DNA of 64,000 nucleotides from a bacterium. GTDB taxonomy: Bacteria; Hinthialibacterota; Hinthialibacteria; Hinthialibacterales; Hinthialibacteraceae. The stretch spans positions 992,001 through 1,056,000 of the forward strand of contig CAXXMV010000001.1 of assembly GCA_963662285.2 (NCBI GenBank). The letters are read 5' to 3'. The notes under the pieces are model-generated. The model was not told the DNA's origin. It did no database searches and saw nothing but the letters and a program-made list of their open reading frames with translations. Of this stretch, positions 368 to 62,885 are shown in pieces; position 1 is the stretch's first letter; the number at the start of each line of letters is the position of its first letter. The translations under genes were made by a program, and so were the position numbers.

Positions 368-455
368 AATAATTCCTCCAGAAAAAAAACAACCTGAATA
401 TTCTACTTCGTATCATGATAAAACATACCCCCAATATAAGCGGGATATAGAATGA

Positions 456-27613: not shown

Positions 27614-28255
27614 TCAGAAGGATGAATTCCTGGTTGACCAGCGGTAAATATCCCCTCTACTCACCGTACCATTACTGGGATTATAAATGGTAACAGACAG
27701 AAATCCCGATAATGCTGAATCGCATACCGGGCAATCTGAACCTCCAGAGTGTTTAATGTCCGGTGGATAGTAATAAATCTGCGCTAATCGACTATCCGGT
27801 CCGGAACTGGCAATCATGGCGTATTTATCACCCAGATTTATGGCTCCCCGCTGACCGGAACGATCAGCCCGACCATAACAATAAGCGTTTGATCCTATAA
27901 ATTCGGTCATATCAACTAATCCGGCGCCATTATCATATGAATGAGCAAAAGGATCAGATGGGACGGCGGATAAATAGGCCAACGGCGAAGTCAGAGGATT
28001 CAGCCGTGCGACCAAATTGAATGCATCAGTATTGTCCGGGATAGATTCCGGCAGGGAATTATGATCGATGCGGTAGGCCTCAAGAGCCACAAAGATTACC
28101 CGTGATTCTTCTTCAATACGAGCAACTTTAGCGCGTATCATGGCCGATAAGAAATTTGGAACCGCAATAGCCGCCAAGATTCCGATTATGGCGACCACTA
28201 TGAGTAATTCTATTAAGGTAAAACCAGTTTGCTTAAATCTTAACATTATGGTCAA
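27614..28255 (-). CDS. Type IV prepilin/pseudopilin-like protein with CPVC motif
   Basis: G|FTLIELLIVVAIIGILAAIAVPNF class III signal peptide; LTSP.AYL..P.DPF, SSGPD and YNPSNGTVSRGDI segments. Confidence 0.88.
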   Translation of the reverse strand: MTIMLRFKQTGFTLIELLIVVAIIGILAAIAVPNFLSAMIRAKVARIEEESRVIFVALEAYRIDHNSLPESIPDNTDAFNLVARLNPLTSPLAYLSAVPSDPFAHSYDNGAGLVDMTEFIGSNAYCYGRADRSGQRGAINLGDKYAMIASSGPDSRLAQIYYYPPDIKHSGGSDCPVCDSALSGFLSVTIYNPSNGTVSRGDIYRWSTRNSSF

Positions 28256-47871: not shown

Positions 47872-50619
47872 ATGTATATGAAGAATCAGTTCACTTTTGT
47901 ATTGGGAATGTGTTTAGCAGTAATTGTGTTGGTATTAGTTTTAACAGTATTCTGGGATTACATATTTCTCAATCCCCCTCCCACGCAAACATTAATAACT
48001 GAGACTAATTCCCCGCTTGACGATCAAATAGTATTATCGCCTTTGCCGACGCCAGCACAAGATATTTTAAACGTCGTTTTGCCTGACACAGAATCCATTA
48101 ACGAAGATCACACTACTAATCCAATTCGCCCAGTCGCCGCTCCATCTCAATTTGAGCATGTCCGAATACGTATAGTTGATGCCCTGGGCGACGCTGTACG
48201 TAGCGGCGCCATCGACCTAAATCAAAAAACTTTTAATTTTACTGACGGCGAACTGAATGTATTCGACATTCCTAATGGCGCCTATCAATTAGTTTGTAAT
48301 GCCGATAATTATGCTTCGGCAACAAACACTATTCAAATTTCAGCTGATAATCGAGAGGCTTTAATTACATTGGAATATCTGTGCGATTACCATATCAATG
48401 TCTTTTTTGGTAATGAGGATGAATTTCAACGGCCAGTATCAGGCGCAGAGGTTTACCTATACAAAGGCCCTGTAGTGCAACGGCCACTTTCTGTCAGCGC
48501 CAGAATACCTTATATGACCTGGCGGGGAACCCGCAATTATGCTCATATCAAACGCAATGATGATATAAAAGTAGTAGGCATAGATAGCGGTGTTGTCGGC
48601 GCACAAGATGCGAATTCAATGGGCGCATCTGATTTTTATATAAACGATAAAATCGCCGGAATATCTGGCTGCATGTGGCATTCAAACTCCCGAATCCACT
48701 TTCCTCATATTAGCGCAGATGCTTATCAACAAGACAATTCACGCAGGTTGCGAATATGGGATGCATTAACCTGCTATACCTCTCCAGATATAAACGCTCA
48801 TTTGTCATCTCCACGTGAACAATATGATTATGTTGATATCAAGCGGGGTCAGTCTGATTTTTTCTGTAAAGTAGGTATACCCGTTTCTAAGAAAATATTA
48901 TCCGCAACCGCCATCACTGATGCAAATGGAAAATGCCAATTTAGAAATCTTCCAGCTGGGACATATATTGCTCAGGCTCATAAAGGTCAATTCCGTTCTT
49001 CCTTCAAGGTTCTTCATCCAGCTGTTCAAAGCAGAAACCTATTTATCTCATCTGCTCGAAACGTCAATATCAACGTAAAACGAGCAGGAGTTGAAGATAA
49101 AGAACTTGCAAATCTTCCAAACGTGGAGGTACTTTTCACCCCTATAGACCAATCTAGTAATTCCGGTTTTTATTCTGGAGAAACCAATCAGTATGGCAAG
49201 ATTAATTTTCACTCCATCCCTTGGGGAACTTACAAATTGAGGATTGTTCCTTCCCCGGTATCGTCTGTTAAACAGAAAACATTAGAAGTTGTAATTGATG
49301 AGCCTGAAGAAAAATTTGTTGTGGAACTAGATTCAACATCTGGATTAACGATTTCGGGAACAGTGATTGATGAAAACACGGGAGCGCCTGTTGAAAATTT
49401 TGGATTAGAGTTAAACCAGCGTAATCCTGTTAGCGGGACGCATAGCCGTACAGTATCCGACCAATCCGGCCGCTTTTCATTTACTTTTTTAGAAAAAGGT
49501 AGATATTGTATATCTCCCATGATGGATAAACGTTATTTTAATGAATATTCGATGTCACCAAGAATGGAGAAATCAACTTATCCTATTCAAGAAACCGATC
49601 AAAGTGAAGAAAGCAATTCAAATAACAAAGATGAATTTGTATTTTCATTTAAGAGTATGAGAAATGATGGTCTTACTGTTTTATTAACTGAAGATATCAA
49701 TGATATGCAGTATTTTGTTGTTTCAGCAGTTAGAACACGATTCCGTGGACAAGTCATAGATACCGAAGGCAGACCTGCCGCAAATGTTCGCGTATCTACA
49801 TCCATTCATTTGCTTACTACTGACGCTATAACAGATGAAGATGGCCGTTTTGAGTTGGTAGCAGTAAGCCGTCCAAGCCAAAGCCGTCACAAGATATCAA
49901 TCACAGCCAAAGTATGCGAGCCTGTTTTCAATCCTCAAGCCGGAACAGTTCCCCGCGTAATAATGCGTGGTTCAACGGATTGTAGGTTTTCAATCGGCGA
50001 AACGATAAACAATATCCAAATAGTCATGGAAAAAATTAACCGCGAGGGGAAACTTAAGGGTCAAGTGATAACAAATGATGATAGGGAAAATTTTGATGGA
50101 TTTAGAATTGTATTGCATCAAAAGTTAGGGCAAATCATACAGGAAATCAAATCGGATGGGTCATTTTTTATCGAAAATATCGAGCCTGGACATGCTGGGT
50201 GTTGGATTATTCCACCGGGGAAGACTATACAACATGCAATATATGGTGAGAGATACATAGAAGAATATTGCCGTGAGTTTTTTGAAGTTACGATACCAGA
50301 AGAGCCGGAACCATTGTCAATAGAAGTCAAAATATATCAAGCAGGTAATATTGCAGGAGTAATTGGAGATGAGGAAGGTAATCCTCTCCCTTTTACGGCA
50401 ATACAATTGCCGCAAATCCCGCAATCCAGTATAAGAAACTCGTATACTGATGAAAATGGTCTGTTTTTTATGTGGGGTCTACGATCAGGCCAAAAATATG
50501 TTATGCAGATAATCCAAAACCACCTTGCAGAGCCTTCTTTGATACTTGAGGATGTAACGGCGCCCAACGAAAATATACAGATTCGTTTAGACTCTTCCCA
50601 GTCATCGAGCAATGATTAA
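47872..50619 (+). CDS. Membrane-anchored protein with repeated carboxypeptidase-regulatory-like beta-sandwich domains
   Basis: One N-terminal TM; repeated ISG.V.D..G.P and TD..G.F....L..G.Y motifs. Confidence 0.75.
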   Translation: MYMKNQFTFVLGMCLAVIVLVLVLTVFWDYIFLNPPPTQTLITETNSPLDDQIVLSPLPTPAQDILNVVLPDTESINEDHTTNPIRPVAAPSQFEHVRIRIVDALGDAVRSGAIDLNQKTFNFTDGELNVFDIPNGAYQLVCNADNYASATNTIQISADNREALITLEYLCDYHINVFFGNEDEFQRPVSGAEVYLYKGPVVQRPLSVSARIPYMTWRGTRNYAHIKRNDDIKVVGIDSGVVGAQDANSMGASDFYINDKIAGISGCMWHSNSRIHFPHISADAYQQDNSRRLRIWDALTCYTSPDINAHLSSPREQYDYVDIKRGQSDFFCKVGIPVSKKILSATAITDANGKCQFRNLPAGTYIAQAHKGQFRSSFKVLHPAVQSRNLFISSARNVNINVKRAGVEDKELANLPNVEVLFTPIDQSSNSGFYSGETNQYGKINFHSIPWGTYKLRIVPSPVSSVKQKTLEVVIDEPEEKFVVELDSTSGLTISGTVIDENTGAPVENFGLELNQRNPVSGTHSRTVSDQSGRFSFTFLEKGRYCISPMMDKRYFNEYSMSPRMEKSTYPIQETDQSEESNSNNKDEFVFSFKSMRNDGLTVLLTEDINDMQYFVVSAVRTRFRGQVIDTEGRPAANVRVSTSIHLLTTDAITDEDGRFELVAVSRPSQSRHKISITAKVCEPVFNPQAGTVPRVIMRGSTDCRFSIGETINNIQIVMEKINREGKLKGQVITNDDRENFDGFRIVLHQKLGQIIQEIKSDGSFFIENIEPGHAGCWIIPPGKTIQHAIYGERYIEEYCREFFEVTIPEEPEPLSIEVKIYQAGNIAGVIGDEEGNPLPFTAIQLPQIPQSSIRNSYTDENGLFFMWGLRSGQKYVMQIIQNHLAEPSLILEDVTAPNENIQIRLDSSQSSSND

Positions 50620-50635
50620 AGTGTTTTACGAAAGT

Positions 50636-50665
50636 AAAAAAGGCGCGATTTCTCGCGCCTTTTTT
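50636..50665. terminator. Bidirectional intrinsic terminator
   Basis: AAAAAAGGCGCGA/TCGCGCCTTTTTT between convergent genes. Confidence 0.85.
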
Positions 50666-50691
50666 ATTTGTTTAAATTGATAATAGATTGG

Positions 50692-52005
50692 TTATTGCAT
50701 CAACTCACGATAATAGAGGTTTGTTCGGCTATCTGGTCTAAATCCACGGTCGCCCGGTTTACGTCCCAGGTTGGCGTTCTGAACAGCGTTGAGAGAGCCG
50801 GTGGCATTGGTCAAAGAGGCCTGACGATCCACCCGTAAATATATAGGGACGACGCCGCGGATTTTCCTACTCTCTTCTCTTTGGTTTGCCCATCCTTTAT
50901 ATTCGATCTCAACAATTATCTTGACTGTACCTTCAAATGGCTTGGCCGGGAAGAAATAAACCCGTCCGCCCGCATCATCATAAAAATCATCCAAATCAAT
51001 ACGGCGGTTCATCATGTTTTTCCAGTTCCGGCTGGCCGGCTGGAATCCCTGAATGTAGCCAACGCCCTCAGCTTCACCGCGAGAATCGAGTGTAAACTGT
51101 ATAGTTGCATCTTTATCTATATCAACAATATTGATTTTTTCTCCATTTGATCCGATAACCTGCATATCAAGCGCAATCTGTTTACTACCGCCAGTTGTGT
51201 TTCGAACAGAAAAATCATCCGGTTTTACAATCAGCATCGGAGGATTAGCCACTATCTGAATCGAATCCGCTGTAACGCCTGGAGTCGGAGTCGGGGTGAC
51301 TATTCCAGGAGCAAAAGTAGGCGTCGGAGTTGGATCTTCACCTTTCTCTGTTGGCGTAGGGGTTGGTTCTGCAATCGTCGGGGTCGGCGTGGGATTATTA
51401 TCATTGCCGCCAATATGAGGAACCAATTGCACATTATCAATATAAGCCGGAGCAGCGCCATCATAAACAAATTCTATTTTTTTCTCGCTGTCTGTGGCGC
51501 CAGCGCCCAGATTCATATTCAATGTCAGAGTAGTTTCATTAAATAATCCCTGGCCAGTTTCAACAGGTATACCGGCAATCAGCATCCCACCAACAAAAAC
51601 ACGAATCTGTCCGCCCGGTGGAACTGCCGTACAGAATGTCAAATCAAACCGCACATAATTACCTTCTGTTTTGGGAACCGCAGCAATAGACGTCCCTGGT
51701 TCTAACGACAGGAAATAATTCTCGGCGCCTGAGGGGAGAACCTCTTTACGCAGCACAGGAGAAATTTCGCCCGGCAGCCAGCCAATCATTGGAGGAGCGC
51801 CGACAATGAGCGATCCCTGCTGAAAATCTCCATTGGTTATCAGGTTTTTTTCCGCATCAATCACCTTTTCGGTACAGCCTGTTTGAAAAGGCACAGCTGT
51901 AGGAGCTGGCGTAGGCGTTTGAGTTTGCGTATAACCTGGAGGCGCTGTATAAAACACTATACCAGCCGCTATCAAACTATAAATCAACCATCTTGTGGAT
52001 TTCAT
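50692..52005 (-). CDS. Secreted protein with CBM-like domain and Pro/Thr linkers
   Basis: Signal peptide, NLITNGDF..YIDNV jelly-roll-like motifs, (PT)n linkers. Confidence 0.65.
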   Translation of the reverse strand: MKSTRWLIYSLIAAGIVFYTAPPGYTQTQTPTPAPTAVPFQTGCTEKVIDAEKNLITNGDFQQGSLIVGAPPMIGWLPGEISPVLRKEVLPSGAENYFLSLEPGTSIAAVPKTEGNYVRFDLTFCTAVPPGGQIRVFVGGMLIAGIPVETGQGLFNETTLTLNMNLGAGATDSEKKIEFVYDGAAPAYIDNVQLVPHIGGNDNNPTPTPTIAEPTPTPTEKGEDPTPTPTFAPGIVTPTPTPGVTADSIQIVANPPMLIVKPDDFSVRNTTGGSKQIALDMQVIGSNGEKINIVDIDKDATIQFTLDSRGEAEGVGYIQGFQPASRNWKNMMNRRIDLDDFYDDAGGRVYFFPAKPFEGTVKIIVEIEYKGWANQREESRKIRGVVPIYLRVDRQASLTNATGSLNAVQNANLGRKPGDRGFRPDSRTNLYYRELMQ

Positions 52006-52117
52006 GATTTTGATCCTTCCAAGCGATTCATCAAATTTATTTCCTCAAAATCAGCCGCTATAACCAAGAGTATCAAAAAAATCAGCGGACATCATATAAT
52101 TTATTAAAAAAAACAAA

Positions 52118-55100
52118 TTATCGTTGATAAATCGCCTCCAGCTTACGCTGGGCGGTAATATTTCCTTCGCTATCGAATATGCGTCCACGCGTAAGAATAG
52201 AAAACGCGCGCGAACGAACTGTAATCAGGCTTGAGATGCGGTTCATGACGGCTTCCATTTCCTCAGTTGTGAGAGGATCGTTGGTTCCAATATTTATCCT
52301 TTCGCGCAAGTCGCCCGGATAATCCTTCAGCAGATCTAACGTACGGTCATAGCGCACCCTCACCAAGTCAGCGAATCTATCTCGGCGCTTGAGGTGCATA
52401 ATCTGCGATAACAGAGTACCGGTATCCGAAAAAGGACCATCATCCGGATCGCTGACCTCAGTGGATAGATGAACATTGTTTCTGAGGTTACTAGCTTTGT
52501 CGCCTTTAACATTCTCAATATTCAGGCCCATACGATCAAAGCGTTGACTCTCGATATCTTTTAAATCTTTAAATGCGCGATAATCTCGTCCCACAGTCCT
52601 TAATTTATAATCAGTCATGGTATCGACTAATGTACGCGCATAACCAATCCGACTAAGGAAATCATCATCATCCAGGTTGTGAATTCCAAAATGCATATCA
52701 TGACCACCCGGTTGGCGTCCTTCAATAATATAATCGGCGCACAATGTGTTGAATTTATGGCGCGAGGGAATATCCTTCAAGCGACCGACGCTTTCCAATG
52801 GACAAAACGGAAGCGCGACCAGAACTTCACGCGGCGCAGTATTTATATTGATTGCTCCTGGAACAATGCCCTGAACAGCCGTGGTAATCATATTATAAAT
52901 CTGGGTATATTGGTTCTCCCATTGATCCAACCGTTCACGTTGCACCAGCATTTTGCGGAACTCCGGAGCGGCGCCAGCAATGCGTTGAACGATATCCGGC
53001 GTTGATAGTATTCTATTCCGAATCGCAGTAGCAATATCTTCGACTCGTTGAGGGATAATCGGCGTATTAATCGTCTCAAAACGATTGCCTGTAAACAGAC
53101 GGGATATCTCGCCCACTGTCGCCAACGGGCCATTCTTGACGTAAGCAGTATTATCGATAATATCCAGTTCATCACGCTGTTGGCCGGTCATATCCAAACG
53201 TCTTCTTGGATATGCTGGAACGTAGCCCGTGTTATCCCGGCCAGGCGTTCCTGCGAGAAGTACGCGACGCGCGATAGTATCGACGCTGTCTGTATCGCCT
53301 ACGCGTCCACGGCCAAATAACTCGATTCCCTTAAAGAAATAATTATCATCACCCATATTACCAACGTAAACGCCAGCGCCAGTTACATAATCTCCATTAG
53401 CTTGTGGATCCAAAGGCAATGGCAGTAGAAGTAAATCAGGACGGGTTTGTGCGGTAATAGTAGAATTATTGTTTAGCAAGCCCTGATCGCGGGTGCTCTT
53501 GCGCATAATGATCGTAATATCGATCTTGGCTTCTTCAAGCGATGATCCTATCAAATCCTGGCTCAGGTCTCTGAACCTCTCACGAAGATCAATGCTGAAT
53601 GCGGTGTCACCATTGCGCAGTTTAGAAAATACCGGTCGATGGACTCCATACAGAAAATTCTTATTGGCAGTATTGAGAACTTCACGTTTGGCTTTATCGT
53701 CGATATTGTTCAATCCTGGGTCCAAGGTAACAACAGCTGGATTAACCAGAACTTCACCAACCGGCAAATCGATTTCATAATTATCATCGTTCGGGCTAAT
53801 CGCCTTACGGCCAATCATCCTGATTGTCAGTTGATCATCAACATCGGGGTCATAACCGGCGCGAATCAGTTCGCGAACGCCCATACGCCATGTAAAGGCT
53901 GTATAACGGATCTGATTAGGCGAGATAACATCAGTCATGTTCTCAAACCCGCCGATCATGGAATAAAATTTGTTCTTTCCTATAACCGGAGACACGGCTT
54001 CTCTGGCGAAGGTATTGCTATCTTCAAATCGCTTGAATTGATTAGCGCCAGACATTTCATGAGGATACTGATAGAAATCGCCAATAAAATCCCACCCATT
54101 CCAGTGGGCGTCGTTTTCGGGGAAAGTATTACGATCCACGAATCTTGGTAAACGCAGACTGGGATTTTCGCTGTCGGTATCGCTTCCTTTGGAGGAAAGG
54201 ATATAACCACCAATTTGAGTTCGCTGAAAATCAGCGGTTGGATCAAGATCGAACACAATGGCATTATCAACATCTAACTTAATAGATGATGGAACCGTAC
54301 GTTCGCCTTCAACCGTTCCACTAACAACTTTCATCTGTGTATCAAAATGAGTCGGATCAGCGCGTTCAAAACTCTCCATGCCGCGATAACCGGGTAAAGC
54401 AATCAGATCAAAGTCCGTATCATTTCCAGGAATATCCACGATCACGTTATTAAAAGTAGTACGGTATTTAAAGGAATCTATGTAACCACCCGCCGGATCA
54501 TACAAAGTTACATATTTATCTTCGGGATTGTTGGTCAGAATATCTTCCTGAATATCCACTAATCTAAATCGAAGGTCGCTTAGTTGGGCTTTATTCAAAG
54601 GACCCACGCCATTTACGCTACTACGTATCAAAGCCTCTTCATTTTGCGCAATTACCGGCATCACAACGCGATTGGCGATGTCGGGAACATCAGGATAATT
54701 ATCCTTGATAAACGAAATCAAAGCATCTTTATCGTTGGCCAATAACAACTTGTTATCTTCCAATAACAGATCGGTCGTCGCGATCGTTCCGCCCGGATTT
54801 TTCAGATTATCCTTAGTAAGCAGAGGTTCAAAGGGAACGCCATTTCCCGGCAACCCGATGTTTGGCGTGATATCCCGACCGTCGTCATCTTCATAAGATG
54901 GTTTCATGCGACCGATGACAGTATCCTTTGGAAGAATGTAATGTCCATAAGGCGTATTGACCTGCCATCCGGAAAGGTCTATATCTTCAGTTGTCAGATT
55001 TACCAATTCGGTATACTGCACTGATGTGTTGATTAATTCGATGCGGTCAAAGGAAGTTTCATAAAAATCGCCTGATCCCTGTCCGCCAATAGGTGCGCCA

Positions 55101-58100
55101 GCGGTGATAGTAATCTTTAATTCACCATCGTTACGAACTTCAACGCGTTGATCAGTGTTAAAAGAATAAGGAGTTAAACGGTAATCCAAAGCCAATAACT
55201 GGTCATTGTAGATGGGCAGTACAGCTGTATCGCGTTTTATAAATTCTCTCTGAACTGGATCGAGAAACGGTCCGGTATTCGGCAGGACATCGCCATAAGT
55301 CGTATCGGATTTGAAAGTTATTTCTTCATCATTAAATTCATATCGCACTTCCGGTCGATATTTGTGATTGGGATGCAAATACAATACAACATAATAGAAG
55401 CCGGAAGGAATATTTTCGAAAGTCCAACTGGCTTTTTCAACCGGCTGCGTCCCGACCATCGTGGTCTGAGCTTGTGCAGGCGTCGCGACATTAGTTACGC
55501 CAAAGATAAATGCTGGCGCCATACTATCCATATTCACGACAGGCAATATTGGATTAAAAGTATTCTGGAAGCCCTCAGGCAAATAGGAATATCCCGGTAA
55601 AGATATACCACTGCCATCAGCATGAGGCGAAACAGCGCCCCAATTGGAATCGATCACGTTAGTAGTCAAGAATTTACCATCATCTCCAGCGCCGCCTTCT
55701 ACCTTAAATGATGCAGGAGAATAAGTAATTATAGTAGGATAAGGATTGGTCGGATCAGTATCGTTGAATTGGATGCTATCCAGCACTTCTTCCGCTTCCA
55801 AACGGATAACCGGCTTGGCCATAACTTCATTTATGCGAATCGCCTCAACCCCCTCAAACTTAACTGCCATTCCAATCTGAGCGGGATTGGGAAGAAGAAA
55901 GCGCATCTGCTCGGCGAACTCCTGCCGATCCTGCGCACTTCGGTTAGGCCCGGAAAATAAGCGGGGATGCATACGAAAAGCACGCTGACGGGTAGTATAA
56001 AGCGTAAACTCACGCATAGTGACCGGATCAGATAATACTGGATCATCTTTGGACCTACCCAATATCCTTCTTACATCAGAGTCTTCGCTAACCGGATATG
56101 GCGCCCATGCGTCAATATAATCAATCAGGTTCAGGGCTATCTGGAATTCAGGCGGATCTTCATCATAACGTCCGTCTTCATCATCATCATAAATTGCTAT
56201 ATAGCGCTCGCCAATTTCATCAACTTCGCCGTCGCTGTCGTTATCAACCCCGTCCCATTCCGGCGCGAACATCGCCGCTAGAACCTGGGGATCATAAAAA
56301 TCGGCGTATCCGTCAAAATCATCATCCGCCAAGCTGGAAAGCAACAAAGGATCAGTAATATCCGGTTTTTGAACTATGCGGCCTTCTTTTGTATCTTTAT
56401 CCGCTTCAGGATTACCGCCAAGACCGGGATAACCGTCTCCGCTCAGGTCGCCCCAGGCATCTTCACTGACATGCCATTCAGGATCATAAGCCAAAGATGC
56501 GTCACCATTGAAATCGCCGGTATCGTCGACCAATAGGTCTCCATCATCATCCTGTCCATTACCTTCGATCACCATGCCATAAATAATATCGGTATAGTTT
56601 TCATCCAGCGTTACAGCATCCCAACGCCGGGGAGAGAAATCTGCACCCTTTATATCCTTATCCCAACCGAGAATCCTCTGATTTTGATAAACCCGGTCGC
56701 CACTGGGGCTTAGTTTATCTTGCGGACCGAAGTCCCGGTCATAATCGCTGCCAGAGTCAAATGCCGGGGCGCCAACATCAGGTTCCCCGAATCCATCGAA
56801 ATCTCCACTAGCGTAATTGTTGCCATCCCAGTCATCGGAAGGTTCGTCAACCAGTCCATCGCCATCATCATCTATTCCATTGATAGTATTAGCTTCGGCT
56901 TCAGACTGCCAGTCGCCGTCATTATCAACCTGAAGCGCCAAGAGGTCTTCTATGTGAACTTTAGGGCCGTATTGAAAATCAGCCCGGTTCGCTGTTGGTT
57001 TGCTCAACGTCCAAACATCGGCGGCAAGCCAATTGCTGCTTAGATTAGGATTAATTTTGGCTACTTCGCTGCCTTTTGCGGAGAGCGGTCCTGATATCTC
57101 ATCGGATTGACTATAGATAGTGATCTCATCGCTCAGCATATCAAAGAAAGTCGGCTTTAACGCTGTATTGAGGTTCAATACGCCAACCATGCGTAAATCT
57201 TCTATAGTAGAAAACGGACGATCATCACCTTTAGGCTGAAAAACATCGAATTCGCTGGGATCGTCTGTACCTTCATCTTTTTCATCAATAAAACCGTCGC
57301 CATCATTATCGATTTTGTCGCCGGGTCGGTAATTGTCAGCATTATCGTGATCGAACGCTTTGGTAAGCGGTGAACCACTGGAGTTTTCCGTACTCGGTCC
57401 GATGTAGCGCTCGTCTTCTTCATTCATCAGGCTGTCGCCATCATCATCATAGCTGTTGCCTACAATTACATAAGGTTGACCGTCAAATTGAGTTAAATCG
57501 TTGAAAGCGTTGCTATATTTCTGAATTTTGACAATCTGTGGATTACCGTTATTGTTATCGTCTTGGTTATCTATTCCAGGTTGTTTAGTGGTTCCGCCGC
57601 CATTGGCGACATCACCATATCTATAGTTAACAATGGCTTTGGCCAAAGATTCGGCTGCAGTGGAGCTAAAATCACCCCGCACGATGCGGTTGAATAAAAA
57701 CAGAGGCAAATCCAGTTCTGAAGAGGACACGCCCAGATTATAAACCTGGCCATTCCCAACACCGATGTTATTTCCGGCGAAGTTGACATTGATCTTGGCG
57801 CTTTCATCGAATACGCCTAAACGGTCTCCATCAAGATCATAACCGGAACCAGCAGGGAAAAAGCCGTTGTCCCGCCGTTGGTCAAGTCCATCTTCATCAA
57901 TGCGGTAATCTTCATCATCATCGTTAGCATATTGATTACTATTGGCGCCGGCATCCACCTCGCCATCAAGGTCATCATCCACACCCATTAGCCCTGGCGC
58001 TTTATCACCTTGGCCTTGGCGCATAACACCGCGCATGCCGGTTACATCACCCGGAGGATCCTCGTCAACGCCTAATGGAATCGGCGTGGGGATAAAGCGC

Positions 58101-58507
58101 ATGCCTTTTCTTTCAAGCACTGAAGAAGGCCGCACATCCAACATATGACTGCGGGCGTCATAGGTTACATTATTGCCAACCCGGCCAGCGTATCCCACCG
58201 CCCATGGATCAAGCAGCGAAGTATATTTCGGCTGCGAACGCCCAAGCACGTAATGGGCTTTATCAGGATCCAAATCACGCGCCAATTGCGCCAATGCACC
58301 CTGAATGGCAGCTTCGGTAGACTCCTGGACGTTCGCGCTGGCTACATATTGCTGGAGGGTATTTTCTTCCATACGTATGGTATAGGTAAAACCAGCCAGC
58401 ACTACGGCGAAGATTGACAGTAAAGCCAGTACGGTCAGAAGCGCCACGCCGGACTCTTTAGCCCGTGCGGTACATGTGATTCGATGAGTATCCAGTTTAT
58501 TATTCAT
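52118..58507 (-). CDS. Giant GspK/PilX-like minor pseudopilin with acidic repeats and lamin-tail motifs
   Basis: G|VALLTVLALL (no Glu5), DESAKINVN, RPFSTIEDL, ININTAPREVL.ALP, ITVRS..F.I..RG and many DxDxDG repeats. Confidence 0.82.
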   Translation of the reverse strand: MNNKLDTHRITCTARAKESGVALLTVLALLSIFAVVLAGFTYTIRMEENTLQQYVASANVQESTEAAIQGALAQLARDLDPDKAHYVLGRSQPKYTSLLDPWAVGYAGRVGNNVTYDARSHMLDVRPSSVLERKGMRFIPTPIPLGVDEDPPGDVTGMRGVMRQGQGDKAPGLMGVDDDLDGEVDAGANSNQYANDDDEDYRIDEDGLDQRRDNGFFPAGSGYDLDGDRLGVFDESAKINVNFAGNNIGVGNGQVYNLGVSSSELDLPLFLFNRIVRGDFSSTAAESLAKAIVNYRYGDVANGGGTTKQPGIDNQDDNNNGNPQIVKIQKYSNAFNDLTQFDGQPYVIVGNSYDDDGDSLMNEEDERYIGPSTENSSGSPLTKAFDHDNADNYRPGDKIDNDGDGFIDEKDEGTDDPSEFDVFQPKGDDRPFSTIEDLRMVGVLNLNTALKPTFFDMLSDEITIYSQSDEISGPLSAKGSEVAKINPNLSSNWLAADVWTLSKPTANRADFQYGPKVHIEDLLALQVDNDGDWQSEAEANTINGIDDDGDGLVDEPSDDWDGNNYASGDFDGFGEPDVGAPAFDSGSDYDRDFGPQDKLSPSGDRVYQNQRILGWDKDIKGADFSPRRWDAVTLDENYTDIIYGMVIEGNGQDDDGDLLVDDTGDFNGDASLAYDPEWHVSEDAWGDLSGDGYPGLGGNPEADKDTKEGRIVQKPDITDPLLLSSLADDDFDGYADFYDPQVLAAMFAPEWDGVDNDSDGEVDEIGERYIAIYDDDEDGRYDEDPPEFQIALNLIDYIDAWAPYPVSEDSDVRRILGRSKDDPVLSDPVTMREFTLYTTRQRAFRMHPRLFSGPNRSAQDRQEFAEQMRFLLPNPAQIGMAVKFEGVEAIRINEVMAKPVIRLEAEEVLDSIQFNDTDPTNPYPTIITYSPASFKVEGGAGDDGKFLTTNVIDSNWGAVSPHADGSGISLPGYSYLPEGFQNTFNPILPVVNMDSMAPAFIFGVTNVATPAQAQTTMVGTQPVEKASWTFENIPSGFYYVVLYLHPNHKYRPEVRYEFNDEEITFKSDTTYGDVLPNTGPFLDPVQREFIKRDTAVLPIYNDQLLALDYRLTPYSFNTDQRVEVRNDGELKITITAGAPIGGQGSGDFYETSFDRIELINTSVQYTELVNLTTEDIDLSGWQVNTPYGHYILPKDTVIGRMKPSYEDDDGRDITPNIGLPGNGVPFEPLLTKDNLKNPGGTIATTDLLLEDNKLLLANDKDALISFIKDNYPDVPDIANRVVMPVIAQNEEALIRSSVNGVGPLNKAQLSDLRFRLVDIQEDILTNNPEDKYVTLYDPAGGYIDSFKYRTTFNNVIVDIPGNDTDFDLIALPGYRGMESFERADPTHFDTQMKVVSGTVEGERTVPSSIKLDVDNAIVFDLDPTADFQRTQIGGYILSSKGSDTDSENPSLRLPRFVDRNTFPENDAHWNGWDFIGDFYQYPHEMSGANQFKRFEDSNTFAREAVSPVIGKNKFYSMIGGFENMTDVISPNQIRYTAFTWRMGVRELIRAGYDPDVDDQLTIRMIGRKAISPNDDNYEIDLPVGEVLVNPAVVTLDPGLNNIDDKAKREVLNTANKNFLYGVHRPVFSKLRNGDTAFSIDLRERFRDLSQDLIGSSLEEAKIDITIIMRKSTRDQGLLNNNSTITAQTRPDLLLLPLPLDPQANGDYVTGAGVYVGNMGDDNYFFKGIELFGRGRVGDTDSVDTIARRVLLAGTPGRDNTGYVPAYPRRRLDMTGQQRDELDIIDNTAYVKNGPLATVGEISRLFTGNRFETINTPIIPQRVEDIATAIRNRILSTPDIVQRIAGAAPEFRKMLVQRERLDQWENQYTQIYNMITTAVQGIVPGAININTAPREVLVALPFCPLESVGRLKDIPSRHKFNTLCADYIIEGRQPGGHDMHFGIHNLDDDDFLSRIGYARTLVDTMTDYKLRTVGRDYRAFKDLKDIESQRFDRMGLNIENVKGDKASNLRNNVHLSTEVSDPDDGPFSDTGTLLSQIMHLKRRDRFADLVRVRYDRTLDLLKDYPGDLRERINIGTNDPLTTEEMEAVMNRISSLITVRSRAFSILTRGRIFDSEGNITAQRKLEAIYQR

Positions 58508-58543
58508 AATTCCACTCTATTTATGCGTCGTTATATGCTTGCG

Positions 58544-59920
58544 CTACAGATTACCTATGCTCCGATAGTTATTCGGCAAAAATACTCTTGTTGAATATTG
58601 CTTAGGACTGTTTTCACGATCTTTATCTTGCACATAAATGGTGATTTCCACCATGTTGGGCAATCCATCTGTTTTTTGAGCTATGCGCTGATATACATCT
58701 ATAAACTGACTGTTCTGTGCATTCCTGACGCTGTTTCTCAGTTGACGGGGATCTTTAATCAGGAAATCCATCAGAACCCCCTGTCCACCGCCAGGTATCC
58801 GGGGATACATATCTTCTGGTTCATTTACAATCAATTTAGTAAAAAGGTCTTCTCGTACGTTATTTGAGGTTGGATCATATTCGCTGTTGCTGCTGCGAGC
58901 TAATTTGTTAAACAGCAACTCATCAGGACTGACCAGCGCTGTTTCGCGGGACGAATCCCACTCTTGAACCATGCGCCAGCCTCCCCGGTTGTAATCATAA
59001 TACCAATACCGGAAGCGCAATCCGCGAATATCATAAGACAACACCTGGAATATATGGCCGGGATTCTGATTAGTCGAATTTATTTCGCCAATGGCGCCGT
59101 CTTCCGCTCCATCATCCCAATAAAGTTCGGCTTGTTGAACAAAACTTTTTCTCATTATCTGCCCAATTGGAACAGGTTGAGCAACAAGAGGTTTGAGGGA
59201 AGCATCGTCAATGAACTGTCCAAAATCCAGCAGTTGGGTTTTCGTACTCGCTTGATTATTTAGGTTTAATACTTGACCGCGTCGAACCAGGCGTGTTCCA
59301 GATGGATCCAATCCATAAGAAATCTCTTGCAGAATAATATCGCCCGAACTCTCCACAGCACTGACAAAATGCAAAATATCGCTGGGAAAAAGACCAATGT
59401 CTTCATCTATGCAAGCCGAATCACCCGGATCACAGCCCAGCGGATCAGCGCCAGGGCTTTCTCCGCGCAATGCTTGTTGAGCACCGCCAGCATAATCCCC
59501 GTCAAATCCATCAAGCACCTCTTCATCGATCAAGCCATCGCCATCATCGTCTTTCCCTGCGCCAGGGACGCTGGAATCCGGCTCGACGACAATATCGCGT
59601 GAAATGCCTGCGAATCGTAACCGCGGACCTGTATTTTGCGATCCAAAACCACCAACGACAACAGGTTTTACCGAATCGGGCGTCAAATAAGCCGCCCGTA
59701 GTTCAGACGACATAAAATCTAACGCCGCACGCGCGGTCTCGTTAACTTCTAACCGGCGAACGGCTATATCCCGTGCAGTCATTACCGCGCGAAATGTTTG
59801 AGCCGCCATGCCCGCCAACATAGTAATCACGGCGACCGAGATCATTAATTCCACTAAGGTAAAACCGCTCTCTTGTCTTACCGGTTGCAATCGCGAAGCG
59901 GTCTGATCTTGAGCAACCAT
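58544..59920 (-). CDS. GspJ/PilW-like minor pseudopilin
   Basis: G|FTLVELMI, ARAALD.M..ELR.A, EISY.L, LRFRY and LP.MVEI segments; one DDDGDGLIDEE repeat. Confidence 0.82.
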   Translation of the reverse strand: MVAQDQTASRLQPVRQESGFTLVELMISVAVITMLAGMAAQTFRAVMTARDIAVRRLEVNETARAALDFMSSELRAAYLTPDSVKPVVVGGFGSQNTGPRLRFAGISRDIVVEPDSSVPGAGKDDDGDGLIDEEVLDGFDGDYAGGAQQALRGESPGADPLGCDPGDSACIDEDIGLFPSDILHFVSAVESSGDIILQEISYGLDPSGTRLVRRGQVLNLNNQASTKTQLLDFGQFIDDASLKPLVAQPVPIGQIMRKSFVQQAELYWDDGAEDGAIGEINSTNQNPGHIFQVLSYDIRGLRFRYWYYDYNRGGWRMVQEWDSSRETALVSPDELLFNKLARSSNSEYDPTSNNVREDLFTKLIVNEPEDMYPRIPGGGQGVLMDFLIKDPRQLRNSVRNAQNSQFIDVYQRIAQKTDGLPNMVEITIYVQDKDRENSPKQYSTRVFLPNNYRSIGNL

Positions 59921-59982
59921 TGTTTTCGCCTTTCTTTCAAACCATCCTTATTTCAGAAGGTTCGATCTGCTTCAATTGCCAA

Positions 59983-61509
59983 CTACATACTCGACACAGG
60001 CCGTGACTGAAGCCCGCGCGGCTGTCCGCCGCTTAATATAAAGCCCTGGCTTGGATCTTTAAGATTAATAAATCCAACCAGTGTATATTCAAATTTATAA
60101 CAGTCCTCATCAATCTCGCCATCAAAATCGTTATCCAGGCCGTCTAATTTCTCTTCATCCACGCCCCAACTTATAGAACCATAGGATAAACGTTGACGAC
60201 GTATCACTCTTGGGTCATTTGGCACCAGATCATCACTGGCTTGTTTATCAATTTTTTTACTATCCCCATCGGTATCTTCACCATCACCGCCCCAGACAAT
60301 CAAAATCTCTATCCGACGCCAATTAGGCAATGGCGCAGCCACGCAATCTTCGTCTACCAAGCCATCCCGTCTTTTGGGAACTTGCGAGTATCCCCGCAAA
60401 AACGCCAAGCCGCGTCTTGTGCCTGAAGGAACAGGAAAATCGTAATCCAGGCCGTCAGGAATCTCTTCATCGATGAATCCATCTCCATCATCATCAATTC
60501 CATTGCCCAGGTCAGGCGAACCATCGCCATTTATATCGGTTATACCGAAACGGCCATCATTAGGTATGCGTCCAACTCGTATTTGCCAGGAATACTTTTC
60601 GAATGGCGCAGGAAAAGGGCAAGGGGCGAATGGAAAACAGGAAAGATCACAATCTTCATCAATAAGGCCATCGTGGTCATTATCAATGCCATCCCATATT
60701 TCCTCATCAATGCCCTCGTCGATTCGGCCATCGCCATTATTGTCTATACCATCTTTAACGGCAGGCAATCCCTGACGATCCGGCTCAAATTCTCCATCTC
60801 CGTCATTATCATATTTATCTCCCGCTAAAAGAGGCAACATGAAAAACTGCGATCCCATTACGCGCACTGAAGGCAAACGGCAATCCTCATCAATGAAACC
60901 ATCTTTGTCATCATCAATTCCGTTGGCAAACTCTTCATCCGTATTAGGTTCAGGATCATAATTATAATCGCCATCTGGAGCATCAGTAGCGAATCTGCGT
61001 GGGATATCCGTTAAACGCCTACTTGAACTATCGCCATCATCATCGACGACGCCATCGCCATCATCATCCAGACCATTAGGTTGAATACCAGAGAACCTTA
61101 AACCATCCGCTTCCGGCAGCCCATCATAATCATCATCGCTGGCGCGGTTATAATTCAAGTCATATTGAGGATTTGCACGAGAAAAGATACGATCCTGATT
61201 GAACATGATATCGTCGGTGTCATCATCATAACAATTGCCGGGAATAGGAATAATTATATTTGGACCCCCGGGAAGGATCGGGAAGTTTATCGGGTCCATC
61301 TTTAAACCCTCAAACATACTTTGCGCCAAAAGCGACGCCTTCGTCATATGCTCAGCTCTATAGCTAACTTCGATGCCATAGGGAAACACCTTCACTATAG
61401 ACAATAGCCCAATCCCCAGGATTGCAGCGGCGATAATTACCTCAAGCAGCGAAAAACCTGCTTGGCGGTAGTTTCTTTTATGTTTCTCTTGGCGGTTCGT
61501 GCCAGTCAT
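59983..61509 (-). CDS. GspI/PilV-like minor pseudopilin with a large acidic repeat insertion
   Basis: G|FSLLEVIIA, AS.LAQ...E, YSW, RRIEI.IVW; many DGxDxDxDGxIDE units. Confidence 0.82.
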   Translation of the reverse strand: MTGTNRQEKHKRNYRQAGFSLLEVIIAAAILGIGLLSIVKVFPYGIEVSYRAEHMTKASLLAQSMFEGLKMDPINFPILPGGPNIIIPIPGNCYDDDTDDIMFNQDRIFSRANPQYDLNYNRASDDDYDGLPEADGLRFSGIQPNGLDDDGDGVVDDDGDSSSRRLTDIPRRFATDAPDGDYNYDPEPNTDEEFANGIDDDKDGFIDEDCRLPSVRVMGSQFFMLPLLAGDKYDNDGDGEFEPDRQGLPAVKDGIDNNGDGRIDEGIDEEIWDGIDNDHDGLIDEDCDLSCFPFAPCPFPAPFEKYSWQIRVGRIPNDGRFGITDINGDGSPDLGNGIDDDGDGFIDEEIPDGLDYDFPVPSGTRRGLAFLRGYSQVPKRRDGLVDEDCVAAPLPNWRRIEILIVWGGDGEDTDGDSKKIDKQASDDLVPNDPRVIRRQRLSYGSISWGVDEEKLDGLDNDFDGEIDEDCYKFEYTLVGFINLKDPSQGFILSGGQPRGLQSRPVSSM

Positions 61510-61527
61510 TTTTCTCTCCCAGGCGCT

Positions 61528-62334
61528 TTACTTAAACAACTCATCCATGGGCCATGGATTCATAATAGCGTAATCATAGATGCGAGTTTTACCTGTAAGT
61601 CTAACAGCTTCAATTGTTTGCACTTTATAACGTTCTTGGTTAAGTTCGGATGGCGGATCAACCCATTTCATTTTGCTGGTACTGAAAGCGCCGATATTTT
61701 TAATATAATCGCCATTTTCGCCATTTATCATGAATATCTCGCTATCACGAGCCAAATGAATCACTGGAGCAATTTGGTTCGATAGCGTTTGCTGCTCTTT
61801 TCCATCAAAATAAACTTTGGCGATTGCTCCACGGGCATTAAACTCGACATAAAAAATTTGCGCGTGATCATCTAATCCCGGGATAAAGCCATCCACATCC
61901 GCAACCATGACTCCATCAGGTAAAGTCTGTGGATCGTTTAATGGATTCGCATTGAAAATATCCGTACTATTACCCTTACATAAGGCCTTAACTTCATAAG
62001 GATACTCCTCGCAAACTTTACCTTCGATCCAGATTTGAGCTGGCTCGGTGCGTGATCCGGATAAAGTATTTGGAAGACCATCCAGATGCCCCGAATCGAT
62101 TACCACCCGGCGATTTTTCCGCATTGCAATCGCGCTTTGCCGGGCTTGTTTGAAACTTGAATTCAACATTTGAATCCCGGCATCCACCCGGCTGCTAGCC
62201 ACCTGCGTCATGTAACTCATCGTCCCAAAGCCAGCCAGAATGCCGATAATCCCGATAACCATCAGCATCTCAAGCATAGAAAAACCGGCCTGTCTTGAAC
62301 GACGATCATTAACGTTAATTTTATTAACTTTCAT
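61528..62334 (-). CDS. GspH/FimT-like minor pseudopilin
   Basis: G|FSMLEMLMV, ARQSAI, LPDGV, FNARG and LTG motifs. Confidence 0.82.
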   Translation of the reverse strand: MKVNKINVNDRRSRQAGFSMLEMLMVIGIIGILAGFGTMSYMTQVASSRVDAGIQMLNSSFKQARQSAIAMRKNRRVVIDSGHLDGLPNTLSGSRTEPAQIWIEGKVCEEYPYEVKALCKGNSTDIFNANPLNDPQTLPDGVMVADVDGFIPGLDDHAQIFYVEFNARGAIAKVYFDGKEQQTLSNQIAPVIHLARDSEIFMINGENGDYIKNIGAFSTSKMKWVDPPSELNQERYKVQTIEAVRLTGKTRIYDYAIMNPWPMDELFK

Positions 62335-62885
62335 GGTATCAGACCCTTATATATATCTTCAAGATAAAACTCCAGCCAGATCACAGCCTGAATCTTATCT
62401 CATCAAACTTAACAATATCACGCATCTGAACTTTGGGTCAGATAAATCTTTTGGCTTCCCTAAGCCATCCCTGCGTCAATTCCGTCCCTCGTGACCCATC
62501 ACACTAACAAATCAACTTAAAAATTGGAAATATATGGAATGCACATTATATCTATTGAATGGAAGCCCCATAGGGTTGAACCGCATCATCGGTTTATTCC
62601 ATTCAAAATTCAAATTGACTGGGGAAATGAGCGTCCCCTTTATTCAGCCCCAAAAACAAAAATAAATCATTGCATATCAGATATTTACTAAGCTTCGGTT
62701 GTTCCACCACTCTAAACTATATCATGCACCTTCAAAACCATCAAATTAAATGTAACGTTTTTTGTAATTTAAATTGTGGGTCATGCGTTACACCTATATT
62801 TCTTATTGAACATTATTTCAATAAGAAATATTCAAATTTACATTTGATAGGTTACATAATATTCTTCATTCATGCAGAAAATACT

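Follow-up and report, generated by a model that had tools for sequence, protein, structure and literature searches.

What does a compact set of minor-pilin genes with one giant member build, and which machine does it serve? The locus lies in the window, the whole 64,000-nucleotide stretch of DNA that was analysed (C1:992001-1056000), which carries a real H-I-J-K operon, as the first-pass annotation had observed. What the cassette encodes is a genuine, conserved version of the known H-I-J-K tip complex that has not been described before. The explanation that we favour, giving it a little better than an even chance, is that this orphan operon supplies a single, T4aP-like type IV filament with its four core minor pilins, H, I, J and K, and that the filament has an enlarged, calcium-stiffened tip with K as adhesin.

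The operon and its subunits

The span 50692-62334 is a tight minus-strand operon running from H through I, J and K to the gene of a secreted PT-linker protein and then a strong terminator hairpin (Table 1), with gaps of 18, 62, 36 and 112 nt, in order, from H to the fifth gene. The open reading frames and sizes listed earlier were reproduced exactly, and the terminator placed after the fifth gene corresponds to the hairpin, which separates the operon from a convergent gene at 47872-50619. A sigma-70-like site in the upstream intergenic region (62744-62716, TTGATG-17-TATAGT with TG) is a candidate only, because promoter-like sites in this region are not in excess (31 vs 26.2 +/- 6.4 in shuffles). 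The cassette surroundings in the window include genes for a release factor, a ThuA-type enzyme and SbcC.

Table 1. Features of the cassette, positions counted from the first letter of the window
Feature	Position	Strand	Remarks
Upstream intergenic region, presumed operon promoter region	62335-62885	minus	551 nt
H minor-pilin gene	61528-62334	minus	ORF, 268 aa
I minor-pilin gene	59983-61509	minus	ORF, 508 aa
J minor-pilin gene	58544-59920	minus	ORF, 458 aa
K minor-pilin gene	52118-58507	minus	ORF, 2129 aa
K residues 1-130, leader and N-terminal helix	58118-58507	minus	...KESG, then VALLT; Thr5 not Glu
K residues 130-800, acidic region	56108-58120	minus	12 profile-detected loop copies, 5 strong
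K residues 801-1880, central module with LTD match	52868-56107	minus	Pfam, orthologue comparison
K residues 1164-1198, LTD (lamin-tail-domain) match	54914-55018	minus	PF00932
K residues 1860-2129 and stop codon, GspK-like C-terminus	52118-52930	minus	invariant helix-hairpin-helix
Fifth gene, secreted protein	50692-52005	minus	ORF, 437 aa
Bidirectional intrinsic-terminator-like hairpin	50632-50669	.	17-bp stem, A run before, T run after

Prepilin N-termini and class-specific best matches in gene order bear out the proposed identity of the genes as an H-I-J-K minor-pilin set. H, I and J score 26.8, 29.5 and 28.9 bits with Pfam N_methyl (curated cut-off 21.2 bits), the only curated Pfam or NCBIfam family cut-off that any cassette protein reaches; N_methyl does not match K. 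The best NCBIfam class matches along the gene order are GspH, PilV, Verru_Chthon C / GspJ and GspK, all confined to the N-terminal part and below curated cut-offs; the GspH and GspK assignments proposed for H and K thus find class matches, both at this sub-cut-off level (H with TIGR01708 GspH, E 1.9e-8, profile positions 1-56 only; K with NF037980 GspK, E 1.4e-5, residues 19-104). H is GspH/FimU-like, has a class III leader ending in RQAG before FSMLE, with Glu5, and contains no copy of the acidic repeat as defined by the strict expression D.D.DG..D[DE].

I matches TIGR02523 PilV best (E 2.9e-10, 40.8 bits against a cut-off of 52.2, vs 13.0 bits for GspI) and keeps a Glu5 (E23) that is invariant among orthologues. 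Its length, about three times the normal, is due to arrays of acidic DxDxDG loops that separate a few conserved hydrophobic segments (residues 306-312, 397-406 and 475-483). Its N-terminus aligns with the canonical I proteins of the genome at an hhalign value of 97.0%, over the N-terminal helix only, and a short motif match to them is not significant (E 0.086, 7 columns). J, which is GspJ/PilW-like, matches the NCBIfam models Verru_Chthon C (E 2.5e-6) and GspJ (E 1e-3) and keeps an equally invariant Glu5 (E24). A single strong acidic loop occupies its residues 120-136, IDEDI at 171-175 is invariant, and a 'W...WDS' stretch at 314-323 resembles GspJ; alignment with the canonical J proteins of the genome again covers the N-terminal helix only (hhalign 97.9%, 73 columns), and a motif alignment with an E-value of 0.0045 has a probability of only 7.7% and is not significant.

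In K, Thr5 (T25) is invariant in 14 orthologues, as are G20, A22, L24 and V26. The acidic region keeps a steady length of 633-694 aa across the phylum, with an invariant Asp at every loop copy in the 14 orthologues, and degenerate 'xNxN' helix-hairpin-helix-like starts occur at residues 238-246, 444-452 and 485-491. The central module measures 1080-1215 aa within the order to which the window belongs vs 698-733 aa in more distant lineages; its LTD match (E 7.2e-4, 20.3 bits against a cut-off of 34.3) recurs in 13 of the 14 orthologues at E<=0.1 (best 8.9e-8). At the C-terminus, the helix-hairpin-helix motif 'ININTAPREVL..LP' is invariant, 8 of the 14 orthologues match T2SSK at E<=0.1, the best of them with 9.5e-4, and hhalign places 38 columns against one of the genome's canonical GspK proteins (92.5%, E 4.8e-7). 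Thr5 together with a GspK-type helix-hairpin-helix is, as far as sequence indicates, as expected of a cap subunit: at the T4aP tip, PilHIJK are capped by PilC/PilY1, and the tip complex is itself capped by a subunit lacking Glu5 (PMC10191384, in part).

The same four co-transcribed genes in H-I-J-K order are found as PilH-I-J-K or FimU-PilV-W-X in T4aP and as GspH-I-J-K in T2SS, and there, too, the proteins have prepilin leaders, K alone lacks Glu5, and K ends in a GspK-type helix-hairpin-helix; unlike in those sets, no class-specific model reaches its cut-off here and, unlike in T4aP minor-pilin sets, no PilY1 or PilE-like gene follows. Three T2SS-like loci in the genome each carry their own complete normal-sized G-H-I-J-K set (H 187-217, I 145-192, J 232-326 and K 428-463 aa). 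Relative to these, the cassette proteins are enlarged about 3-fold (I), 1.5-2-fold (J) and 4.5-fold (K), the extra mass being the acidic loop arrays and a ~1,100-aa LTD-containing module in K, so that the earlier remark that typical subunits are far smaller holds within this very genome. Verru_Chthon A-D (TIGR02600, TIGR02598, TIGR02599 and TIGR02596) also comprise four prepilin-like genes, one of them giant (A, with a model of 1,296 positions), and weak matches to D, B, C and A map onto H, I, J and K. As these cover only the first 31-62 model positions with 11-27 bits against cut-offs of 51-332 bits, membership was rejected, and the comparison made in the first-pass annotation stands for layout but reaches no further than N-terminal, sub-cut-off matches.

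The neighbourhood survey found the homologs kept as a cassette, the H-I-J-K order being retained in 20/20 fetched loci, i.e. 5/5 from a scan of public genomes and 15/15 from the phylum, the latter with the caveats that tblastn did not detect J in L077, that L072 and L077 have a split K, and that in L066 K runs off the end of the contig. In the phylum (that of Ca. Hinthialibacter), I and the K C-terminus were each found in 32 of 35 genomes and one or the other in 34 of 35. The cassette is single-copy, I has 94 full-length orthologues at E<=1e-3, and full-length matching to a characterised family returned none. A previously undescribed cassette is therefore near-universal in a little-known phylum.

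The acidic loops

The acidic repeat noticed earlier is real and common to I, J and K, with 5, 1 and 4 strict copies, respectively. A profile built from these 10 copies found 11, 2 and 12 stretches, of which 8, 1 and 5 score above 5 bits; the initial estimate of roughly 9, 1 and 12 copies is accordingly fair if degenerate copies are counted, but not as a strict count. All open frames of at least 100 aa in the 7.3 Mb genome (2.85 million aa) contain 16 strict motifs, 10 of them in these three proteins, a concentration far above chance. Asp makes up 15.9% of I, 9% of J and 11.6% of K, and 59% (23/39), 29% and 34% of their respective invariant columns. The number of strict motifs per orthologue is steady (I 3-6, J 1-2, K 3-8) and orthologues as distant as about 26% identity keep the loop aspartates unchanged; on this alignment evidence, the repeat is under strong purifying selection.

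The pattern D-x-D-x-D-G-x-x-D is the classical Ca2+ loop, and thrombospondin type-3 and other DxDxDG loops are stiffened by Ca2+. Like the loops of EF-hand, thrombospondin type-3, PF11617 (MopE-type metal-binding motif) and NF033662 (acidic double-disulfide repeat), those of the cassette have Asp at positions 1, 3, 5 and 9, Gly at position 6 and a tandem arrangement; unlike in the last three, Cys pairs are absent or not conserved. EF-hand matches in Pfam (E 0.018-0.8) and a weak NF033662 match are all below cut-off, PDB sequence searches gave no match, and PF11617 matches neither I, J and K at E<=1 nor the repeat segments at E<=10. Judged by likeness to the motif, the loops probably bind Ca2+.

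A complex prediction for I and J with 4 Ca scored 0.53 (best of 3 controls 0.00), with runs agreeing in at least 58% of contacts and partner pLDDT of at least 73, which amounts to 'weak support' rather than none for a pilin-like tip complex. In a set of 157 solved complexes the mark lets through 116, and in one of 215 mismatched pairs it lets through 2; among these passes, scores of at most 0.60 comprise only 18 of the solved complexes and both mismatches. GspI-GspJ complexes have already been solved, and the I-J pass may reflect likeness rather than binding.

The first-pass annotation had taken the loops to form a polyanionic head for metal capture or for adhesion to minerals or host cells, a reading in which they would do more than hold structural calcium. 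We consider this unlikely: about 25 invariant-aspartate loop copies concentrated in three tip subunits, the Asp richness of I and K, and weak sequence-search links to PF11617-carrying proteins (P0094, P0096 and P0097) would suit such a head, but PF11617 itself is unmatched, no neighbouring gene points to metal handling, and every Asp strictly keeps its position, as would be expected of fixed coordination sites more than of a general charge cloud. Metal capture or adhesion to mineral or host by a polyanionic head is speculation, and a structural calcium role is the simpler account of the same data.

The filament and its proposed machine

T2SSE, secretin and T2SSF have no match inside the window, and the 378 kb around 20 cassette loci contain no ATPase, platform or secretin gene. 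Elsewhere in the genome there are 11 T2SSE matches, 7 of them near full length, and 8 secretin matches, in agreement with the proposal that the cassette depends on machinery encoded at a distance; many T4aP minor-pilin operons are likewise encoded apart from ATPase and secretin genes (PMC10191384, in part). An MSH-like locus has its own pilins, and no H-I-J-K genes of their own accompany the PilB-PilT-PilB cluster, the orphan PilC or the PilMN/TPR-secretin locus. Co-occurrence cannot discriminate between the machines, because a PilM/N fusion is present in 35/35 genomes of the phylum and the cassette in 34/35. Since the T2SS-like loci carry their own sets, we infer that the cassette serves a dispersed T4aP-like machine, which by elimination would consist of PilB-PilT-PilB, the orphan PilC, the PilM/N fusion with the TPR-secretin, and PilD.

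On such a machine, prepilin peptidase would process H, I, J and K, and an I-J-K trimer with H beneath would prime filament assembly and end at the filament tip. Roughly 25 acidic loops would bind Ca2+ once outside the cytoplasm, turning inserts that would else be floppy into a large, rigid head. This head would present the K central module, and perhaps the co-transcribed, secreted fifth protein, and so let the filament adhere to particles or polymers. Both the binding of calcium and the role in adhesion are putative, as is the assignment to this machine, which was reached by elimination only. PilY1, a non-pilin protein with a beta-propeller (PF05567) at its C-terminus, reportedly has a calcium-dependent function. 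As this one Pfam model has no match in the genome (92.5% complete), the giant K probably stands in for PilY1 as tip adhesin. K would take the same place as the likewise large, tip-located PilY1/PilC adhesin, but has, unlike PilY1, a pilin-type N-terminus and no PF05567 match. Known 'modular pilins' carry grafted adhesive domains, and in Streptococcus sanguinis PilB and PilC a pilin module likewise bears extra, probably adhesive, modules, appended at its C-terminus (PMC10191384, in part). The cassette additions, in contrast, appear inserted within the pilin, the hydrophobic core segments of I being spread over its full length and pilin-like termini of K flanking the insert, and are mainly repeated acidic loops, unlike those of PilB and PilC as described in that part of the source.

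It is improbable that the cassette instead forms the tip of a T2SS pseudopilus, which would stay periplasmic and recognise and push out substrates, perhaps the fifth protein. H, J and K do match GspH, GspJ and GspK models, the genome is rich in T2SS-type ATPases, and the secreted fifth protein is co-transcribed, the H-I-J-K complex of T2SS being known to interact with secreted effectors (PMC10191384, in part). The three T2SS-like loci are nevertheless each fully equipped, I matches PilV rather than GspI best, no major pseudopilin G adjoins the cassette, and a cap and subunits of this size would make a very bulky periplasmic piston.

In dockerins, EF-hand-like Ca2+ loops come as pairs, and the loops in I are often paired too, about 20 residues apart. 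Moreover, the genes of two cohesin-match proteins (one of 620 aa with E 6.9e-8, above cut-off; the other of 530 aa with E 4.9e-5, 24.0 vs 24.1 bits) immediately precede the PilM/N fusion gene and share its strand (C8 locus). That the paired loops are dockerin-like modules recruiting cohesin-domain proteins to the pilus tip is nonetheless highly improbable: Dockerin_1 is unmatched in I, J and K at E<=1 and in the repeat segments at E<=10, dockerin loop spacing differs from that of the cassette, and the tie between cassette and C8 locus is itself putative. That the repeats are low-complexity drift without a specific function, in genes that are inflated or mis-called, can practically be dismissed despite the highly biased composition and the failure of curated models beyond the N-termini, being contradicted by the full-length I orthologues, the Asp positions invariant at 26-30% overall identity, the constant length of the acidic region and the single-copy, near-universal presence of the gene in the phylum.

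The fifth protein

The fifth protein has a signal-peptide-like N-terminus, PT-rich linkers and an N-terminal 'NGDF...GW' domain with two conserved Cys; its strict acidic motif count is 0. Its earlier description as a secreted CBM-like/PT-linker protein holds for the N-terminus and linkers, and 'CBM-like' is a lead only: Pfam gives no match, and CBM_4_9/CenC clusters in the Atlas reach 0.79, under the level that counts. The gene is kept downstream of K within the window's order only, being present in the f1, f2 and f3 loci, and in the f6 loci other genes replace it.

Organisation and conservation of the cassette

Tip complexes of H, I, J and K subunits initiate the assembly of type IV pili and of the type II secretion pseudopilus and decide what the tip contacts. 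The cassette considered here encodes a version of such a complex that is genuine, strongly conserved and so far undescribed. It is kept by a phylum for which metagenomes are the only source, and strictly conserved acidic loops make three of the four subunits far larger than usual, the cap being extended in addition by a module of about 1,100 aa with a putative lamin tail domain (LTD). The extreme loop decoration of three subunits and the giant cap with this putative LTD are new, the basic kind is ordinary, and the cassette extends a known kind of system rather than representing a new one. A literature search returned no published description of such a cassette, and public records name its proteins "hypothetical protein", "lamin tail domain-containing protein" or, generically, "prepilin-type" or "PulG". 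In an excerpt of the phylum description, only flagella and Tad pili are mentioned for Ca. Hinthialibacter (PMC9324843).

The ORF map agreed exactly, for all five genes, with the anatomy described in the first-pass annotation. In the order H-I-J-K-fifth gene, the intergenic gaps are 18, 62, 36 and 112 nt; a 551-nt intergenic region separates the operon on its 5' side from a peptide chain release factor gene. The fifth gene encodes a secreted PT-linker protein, whose likeness to CBM_4_9/CenC clusters in the ESM Atlas (0.79) is under the counting level and serves as a lead only.

Coordinates of the cassette (positions in the window), of the parts of K (residues) and of the machinery loci (C numbers are contigs of the window's genome; the window lies on C1)
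Feature	Position	Strand	Remarks
H	61528-62334	minus	268 aa, ORF map
I	59983-61509	minus	508 aa, ORF map
J	58544-59920	minus	458 aa, ORF map
K	52118-58507	minus	2129 aa, ORF map
Fifth gene	50692-52005	minus	437 aa, ORF map
Hairpin	50632-50669		17-bp stem, A and T runs at its sides; between operon and convergent gene
K N-terminus	residues 19-104 (NF037980)		GspK-like
K acidic region	residues ~130-800		degenerate 'xNxN(T)A'-type motif starts inside
K central module	residues 801-1880		lamin-tail-domain match
K C-terminus			invariant 'ININTAPREVL' helix-hairpin-helix
T2SS-like locus	C1 ~555-566 kb		own G-H-I-J-K set, ordinary size
T2SS-like locus	C6 ~877-889 kb		own G-H-I-J-K set, ordinary size
T2SS-like locus	C7 ~12-23 kb		own G-H-I-J-K set, ordinary size
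MSH-like locus	C1 ~1,214-1,228 kb		own pilins and DUF6701 protein
PilB-PilT-PilB	C6 ~1,587-1,592 kb		part of dispersed T4aP-like set
Orphan PilC	C2 ~666 kb		part of dispersed T4aP-like set
PilM/N fusion and TPR-secretin	C8 ~420-428 kb		part of dispersed T4aP-like set
Prepilin peptidase	C2 ~284 kb		part of dispersed T4aP-like set

Protein searches with I recovered 94 relatives at E ≤ 1e-3, mostly full length. Among their named sources are Ca. Hinthialibacter antarcticus and MAGs carrying the label Omnitrophota, which makes Hinthialibacterota (OLB16) the most likely phylum of the window's organism. The neighbourhoods showed that the genes are conserved as a cassette: the H-I-J-K order is kept in 20/20 loci, that is in 5/5 true loci of the public-genome scan and in 15/15 loci of the phylum. 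Some caveats apply to the latter: tblastn did not detect J in L077, a split K occurs in both L072 and L077, and a contig end truncates K in L066. In L072 (genome G012) and L077 (genome G001) K occupies at least two open frames, for which frameshifting, misassembly and genuine decay are all conceivable causes. Among the 35 phylum genomes, I is found in 32, the C-terminus of K in 32 and at least one of these two markers in 34, essentially in single copy; with these queries both are missing only in G027 (90% complete, 1,260 contigs). Within the window's family the fifth gene is conserved 3' of K; its conservation is weaker at the level of the order, and in a more distant family (f6) other genes are found in its place.

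The convergent neighbour (47872-50619, plus strand) encodes a 915-aa protein with many CarboxypepD_reg / transthyretin-like repeats and a Por_Secre_tail match at residues 59-150, an unusual N-terminal placement. On the same strand are found a gene for a 427-aa protein that fuses a ThuA domain and a 3-keto-disaccharide hydrolase domain (46414-47697) and an SbcC/Rad50-like gene (43320-46367; 1015 aa, with a zinc hook), in the region of which the AT skew of the window peaks (0.387 at 44001-46000). The window also carries a second pilin-like gene pair, unrelated to the cassette, on the minus strand: a further prepilin-type protein of 213 aa (27614-28255; N_methyl E 2.7e-9) and an adjoining protein of 421 aa (28268-29533) with a faint beta-propeller match only.

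Pilin identity of the subunits and architecture of the giant K

H, I and J pass the cut-off of the Pfam N_methyl model PF07963 (26.8, 29.5 and 28.9 bits, respectively, against 21.2), all three exceed that of TIGR02532 (16.3), and their processed starts, read from the translations, conform to G|F(S/T)(M/L)(L/V)E with Glu5 present. K gave no N_methyl match and its leader reads G|VALLT, with Thr5 in place of Glu5; every aligned orthologue of I and J keeps Glu5, and every aligned orthologue of K keeps Thr5. K shares Thr5 with GspK-type caps, and a review of type 4 filaments (PMC10191384) describes their tip complex as having a capping subunit that lacks Glu5.

The best class-specific NCBIfam matches follow the gene order (GspH, PilV, Verru_Chthon C / GspJ, GspK), covering the N-terminal 30-90 residues only and lying far under the curated cut-offs, so that none confers family membership: H scored 34.5 bits with GspH TIGR01708 (cut-off 80; positions 1-56 of 169), I 40.8 bits with PilV TIGR02523 (cut-off 52.2; positions 1-58 of 139) and 13.0 bits with GspI TIGR01707 (cut-off 44.35), J 18.9 bits with GspJ TIGR01711 (cut-off 64.85; positions 2-58 of 192) and K 24.8 bits with GspK NF037980 (cut-off 130; the N-terminal match only). 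The four proteins likewise fall outside the Verru_Chthon families A (TIGR02600 with K, 11.1 bits against 332.3), B (TIGR02598 with I, 14.6 against 51.4), C (TIGR02599 with J, 27.0 against 256.5) and D (TIGR02596 with H, 26.7 against 70).

The three T2SS-like sets of the same genome provide an internal size control for the cassette proteins, with H of 187-217, I of 145-192, J of 232-326 and K of 428-463 aa. Using hhalign, I aligned with the canonical I proteins of this genome over 64 N-terminal columns only and the N-terminus of J with canonical J at 97.9%, and a 'W...WDS' stretch of J aligned weakly with canonical J (E 0.0045, probability 7.7%); when profiles of the C-terminal halves of I and J were set against these canonical proteins, only short motif matches without significance resulted. 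Against PDB sequences, the I profile recovered pilin N-termini only (E 0.5-0.9) and K had no match at E ≤ 1; in the ESM Atlas, I approached pilin/PilV clusters at 0.86-0.89, under the counting level and retained as leads only. The conserved hydrophobic segments of I (306-312, 397-406 and 475-483) are candidate strands of a small pilin sheet, between which the acidic loops would lie.

At the C-terminus of K, hhalign placed 38 columns only at the corresponding place of a canonical GspK of the same genome (92.5%, E 4.8e-7); T2SSK PF03934 scored 13.5 bits in the window's K (cut-off 24.2) and matched 8/14 K orthologues at E ≤ 0.1, and comparison of the C-terminal profile with PDB sequences gave chance-level matches only. 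The acidic region of K is constant in length (633-694 aa), even in lineages with 26-28% overall identity. The lamin tail domain PF00932 scored 20.3 bits in the window's K (gathering cut-off 34.3), matched 13 of the 14 orthologues at E ≤ 0.1 (best 8.9e-8) and is precomputed on 10/41 relatives.

When 1.84 billion representative proteins were screened with a central-module profile, only 87 passed E ≤ 1e-3, of which 18 passed E ≤ 1e-30. We examined 16 of these, namely 14 more distant relatives and two closer ones (P0106 and P0108): a GspK-type N-terminus is present at E ≤ 0.01 in 13/16, and many carry several strict acidic motifs. On these N-termini and motifs, K belongs to a wider, unstudied set of giant, acid-loop-decorated K-type proteins; those with a public name are entered as "hypothetical protein" or "lamin tail domain-containing protein". 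A more distant giant group (relatives P0155 and P0163-P0179, about 2,500-3,300 aa) matches K on either side of and across its putative LTD, with up to five strict acidic motifs apiece; the two tested, P0155 and P0164, have K-type N-termini (GspK E ≤ 2e-4).

Acidic loops and the putative tip complex

The acidic motif DxDxDGxxD[DE], searched as the strict expression D.D.DG..D[DE], occurs five times in I, once in J and four times in K, with no copy in H or in the fifth protein. A profile made from those ten copies detects 11, 2 and 12 stretches in I, J and K (8, 1 and 5 of them above 5 bits), and the earlier count by eye of 9, 1 and 12 repeats is reasonable when degenerate copies are included. 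Among all open frames of at least 100 aa in the whole genome (7.29 Mb) there are 16 strict motifs, ten of which belong to the cassette; within this genome, the motif is nearly private to the operon. Asp makes up 23/39 invariant columns in 29 I orthologues (59%, against 16% of composition), 59/175 in 14 K orthologues (34%, against 12%) and 11/38 in 16 J orthologues (29%, against 9%), and the weak loop copies of K also fall on invariant Asp columns. Judged from these alignments, the acidic loops are under strong selection.

The arrangement of Asp at motif positions 1, 3, 5 and 9 with Gly at 6 is that of the classical DxDxDG Ca2+ loop. EF-hand matches stayed sub-threshold (E 0.018): EF-hand_6 scored 15.2 bits in residues 190-290 of I (cut-off 25), which is short of EF-hand membership (PF13405/PF00036), and NF033662 scored 14.5 bits against a cut-off of 41, again outside the family. 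The MopE-type model PF11617 had no match on the repeat segments at E ≤ 10, the Dockerin_1 model none in I, J or K, and the repeat region of I none among PDB sequences at E ≤ 10. The motif, together with the sub-threshold EF-hand matches, suggests that the loops may bind Ca2+; metal capture or mineral adhesion, as proposed in the first-pass annotation, would be a less economical explanation than structural calcium. Should calcium binding by the loops prove real, no known pilus tip would depend on calcium to such an extent, and the cassette would also be a natural case of modules placed inside minor pilins and not appended to them.

Prediction of an I+J complex with four Ca gave a score of 0.53, the best of three controls giving 0.00; the mark for this score is reached by 116/157 solved complexes and 2/215 mismatched pairs. 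Passes at scores of 0.60 or less comprise no more than 18/157 solved complexes, and both of the mismatched pairs that passed. Contacts agreed between runs to at least 58%, and the partner pLDDT was at least 73. Since GspI-GspJ complexes have already been solved, the pass may reflect likeness to them, and the prediction gives a weak hint of an I-J contact. In the mechanism that we propose, a trimer of I, J and K, seated on H, would prime the filament and occupy its tip; once beyond the cytoplasm, the loops would bind Ca2+ and so stiffen the inserts, and the head would present the central module of K, and possibly the fifth protein, for adhesion.

Candidate machinery elsewhere in the genome

The genome contains 11 T2SSE matches, 8 secretin matches and 8 T2SSF-type proteins (16 domain matches), all of them outside the window, in keeping with the earlier remark that the window holds no machinery gene; ATPase, platform, PilM/N and secretin genes are likewise absent from the 378 kb that the 20 cassette loci cover. 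A further T2SSK match (C6:1407838) was dropped, being the helix-hairpin-helix region of a Tex protein. Besides the T2SS-like and MSH-like loci there is a Tad-like locus, and the dispersed T4aP-like set is left as the one that has no minor pilins of its own. No PilY1 domain (PF05567) was found in K, nor in the whole genome at E ≤ 0.1 (genome 92.5% complete). As the T4aP-like set lacks its own minor pilins, PilY1 was not found and the best match of I is PilV and not GspI, we infer by elimination that the cassette would be the minor-pilin operon of this dispersed machine, the giant K probably standing in the place held elsewhere by PilY1. The PilM/N fusion occurs in 35/35 phylum genomes, and its co-occurrence with the cassette is not discriminating because both are near-universal (35/35 and 34/35).

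We consider it very improbable that the tip complex serves for docking, as a platform loaded with calcium. In this reading, the roughly 25 conserved loops, many of them paired, would act like dockerins and recruit cohesin-domain proteins (two encoded directly upstream of pilM/N), and perhaps the CBM-like fifth protein, to the tip of a pilus able to retract, with the giant K in place of PilY1; a polymer-degrading phylum would then possess a "fishing rod" that carries an enzymatic or binding complex at the far end.

The PilB-PilT-PilB cluster (L090, C6:1580000-1599900) lies behind a gene for an 874-aa TPR protein and has no pilin, platform or secretin gene nearby, and another locus (L091, C2:22000-41900) encodes an 879-aa TPR-T2SSE fusion ATPase adjoining a sigma-54 activator. 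At L095 (C3:294000-308000) a TPR protein is followed by a tandem pair of short secretin genes (390 and 402 aa), adjoined by a gene for a 770-aa protein with a hydrazine-synthase-alpha middle-domain match. At L093 (C8:413000-432900) the genes for the PilM/N fusion (693 aa) and the TPR-secretin (1057 aa) come after two same-strand genes whose products, of 620 and 530 aa, match cohesin domains, while a pilin gene (218 aa) and fliG lie downstream; pilin-like relatives of this 218-aa protein are found near the cassette in 3/20 loci.
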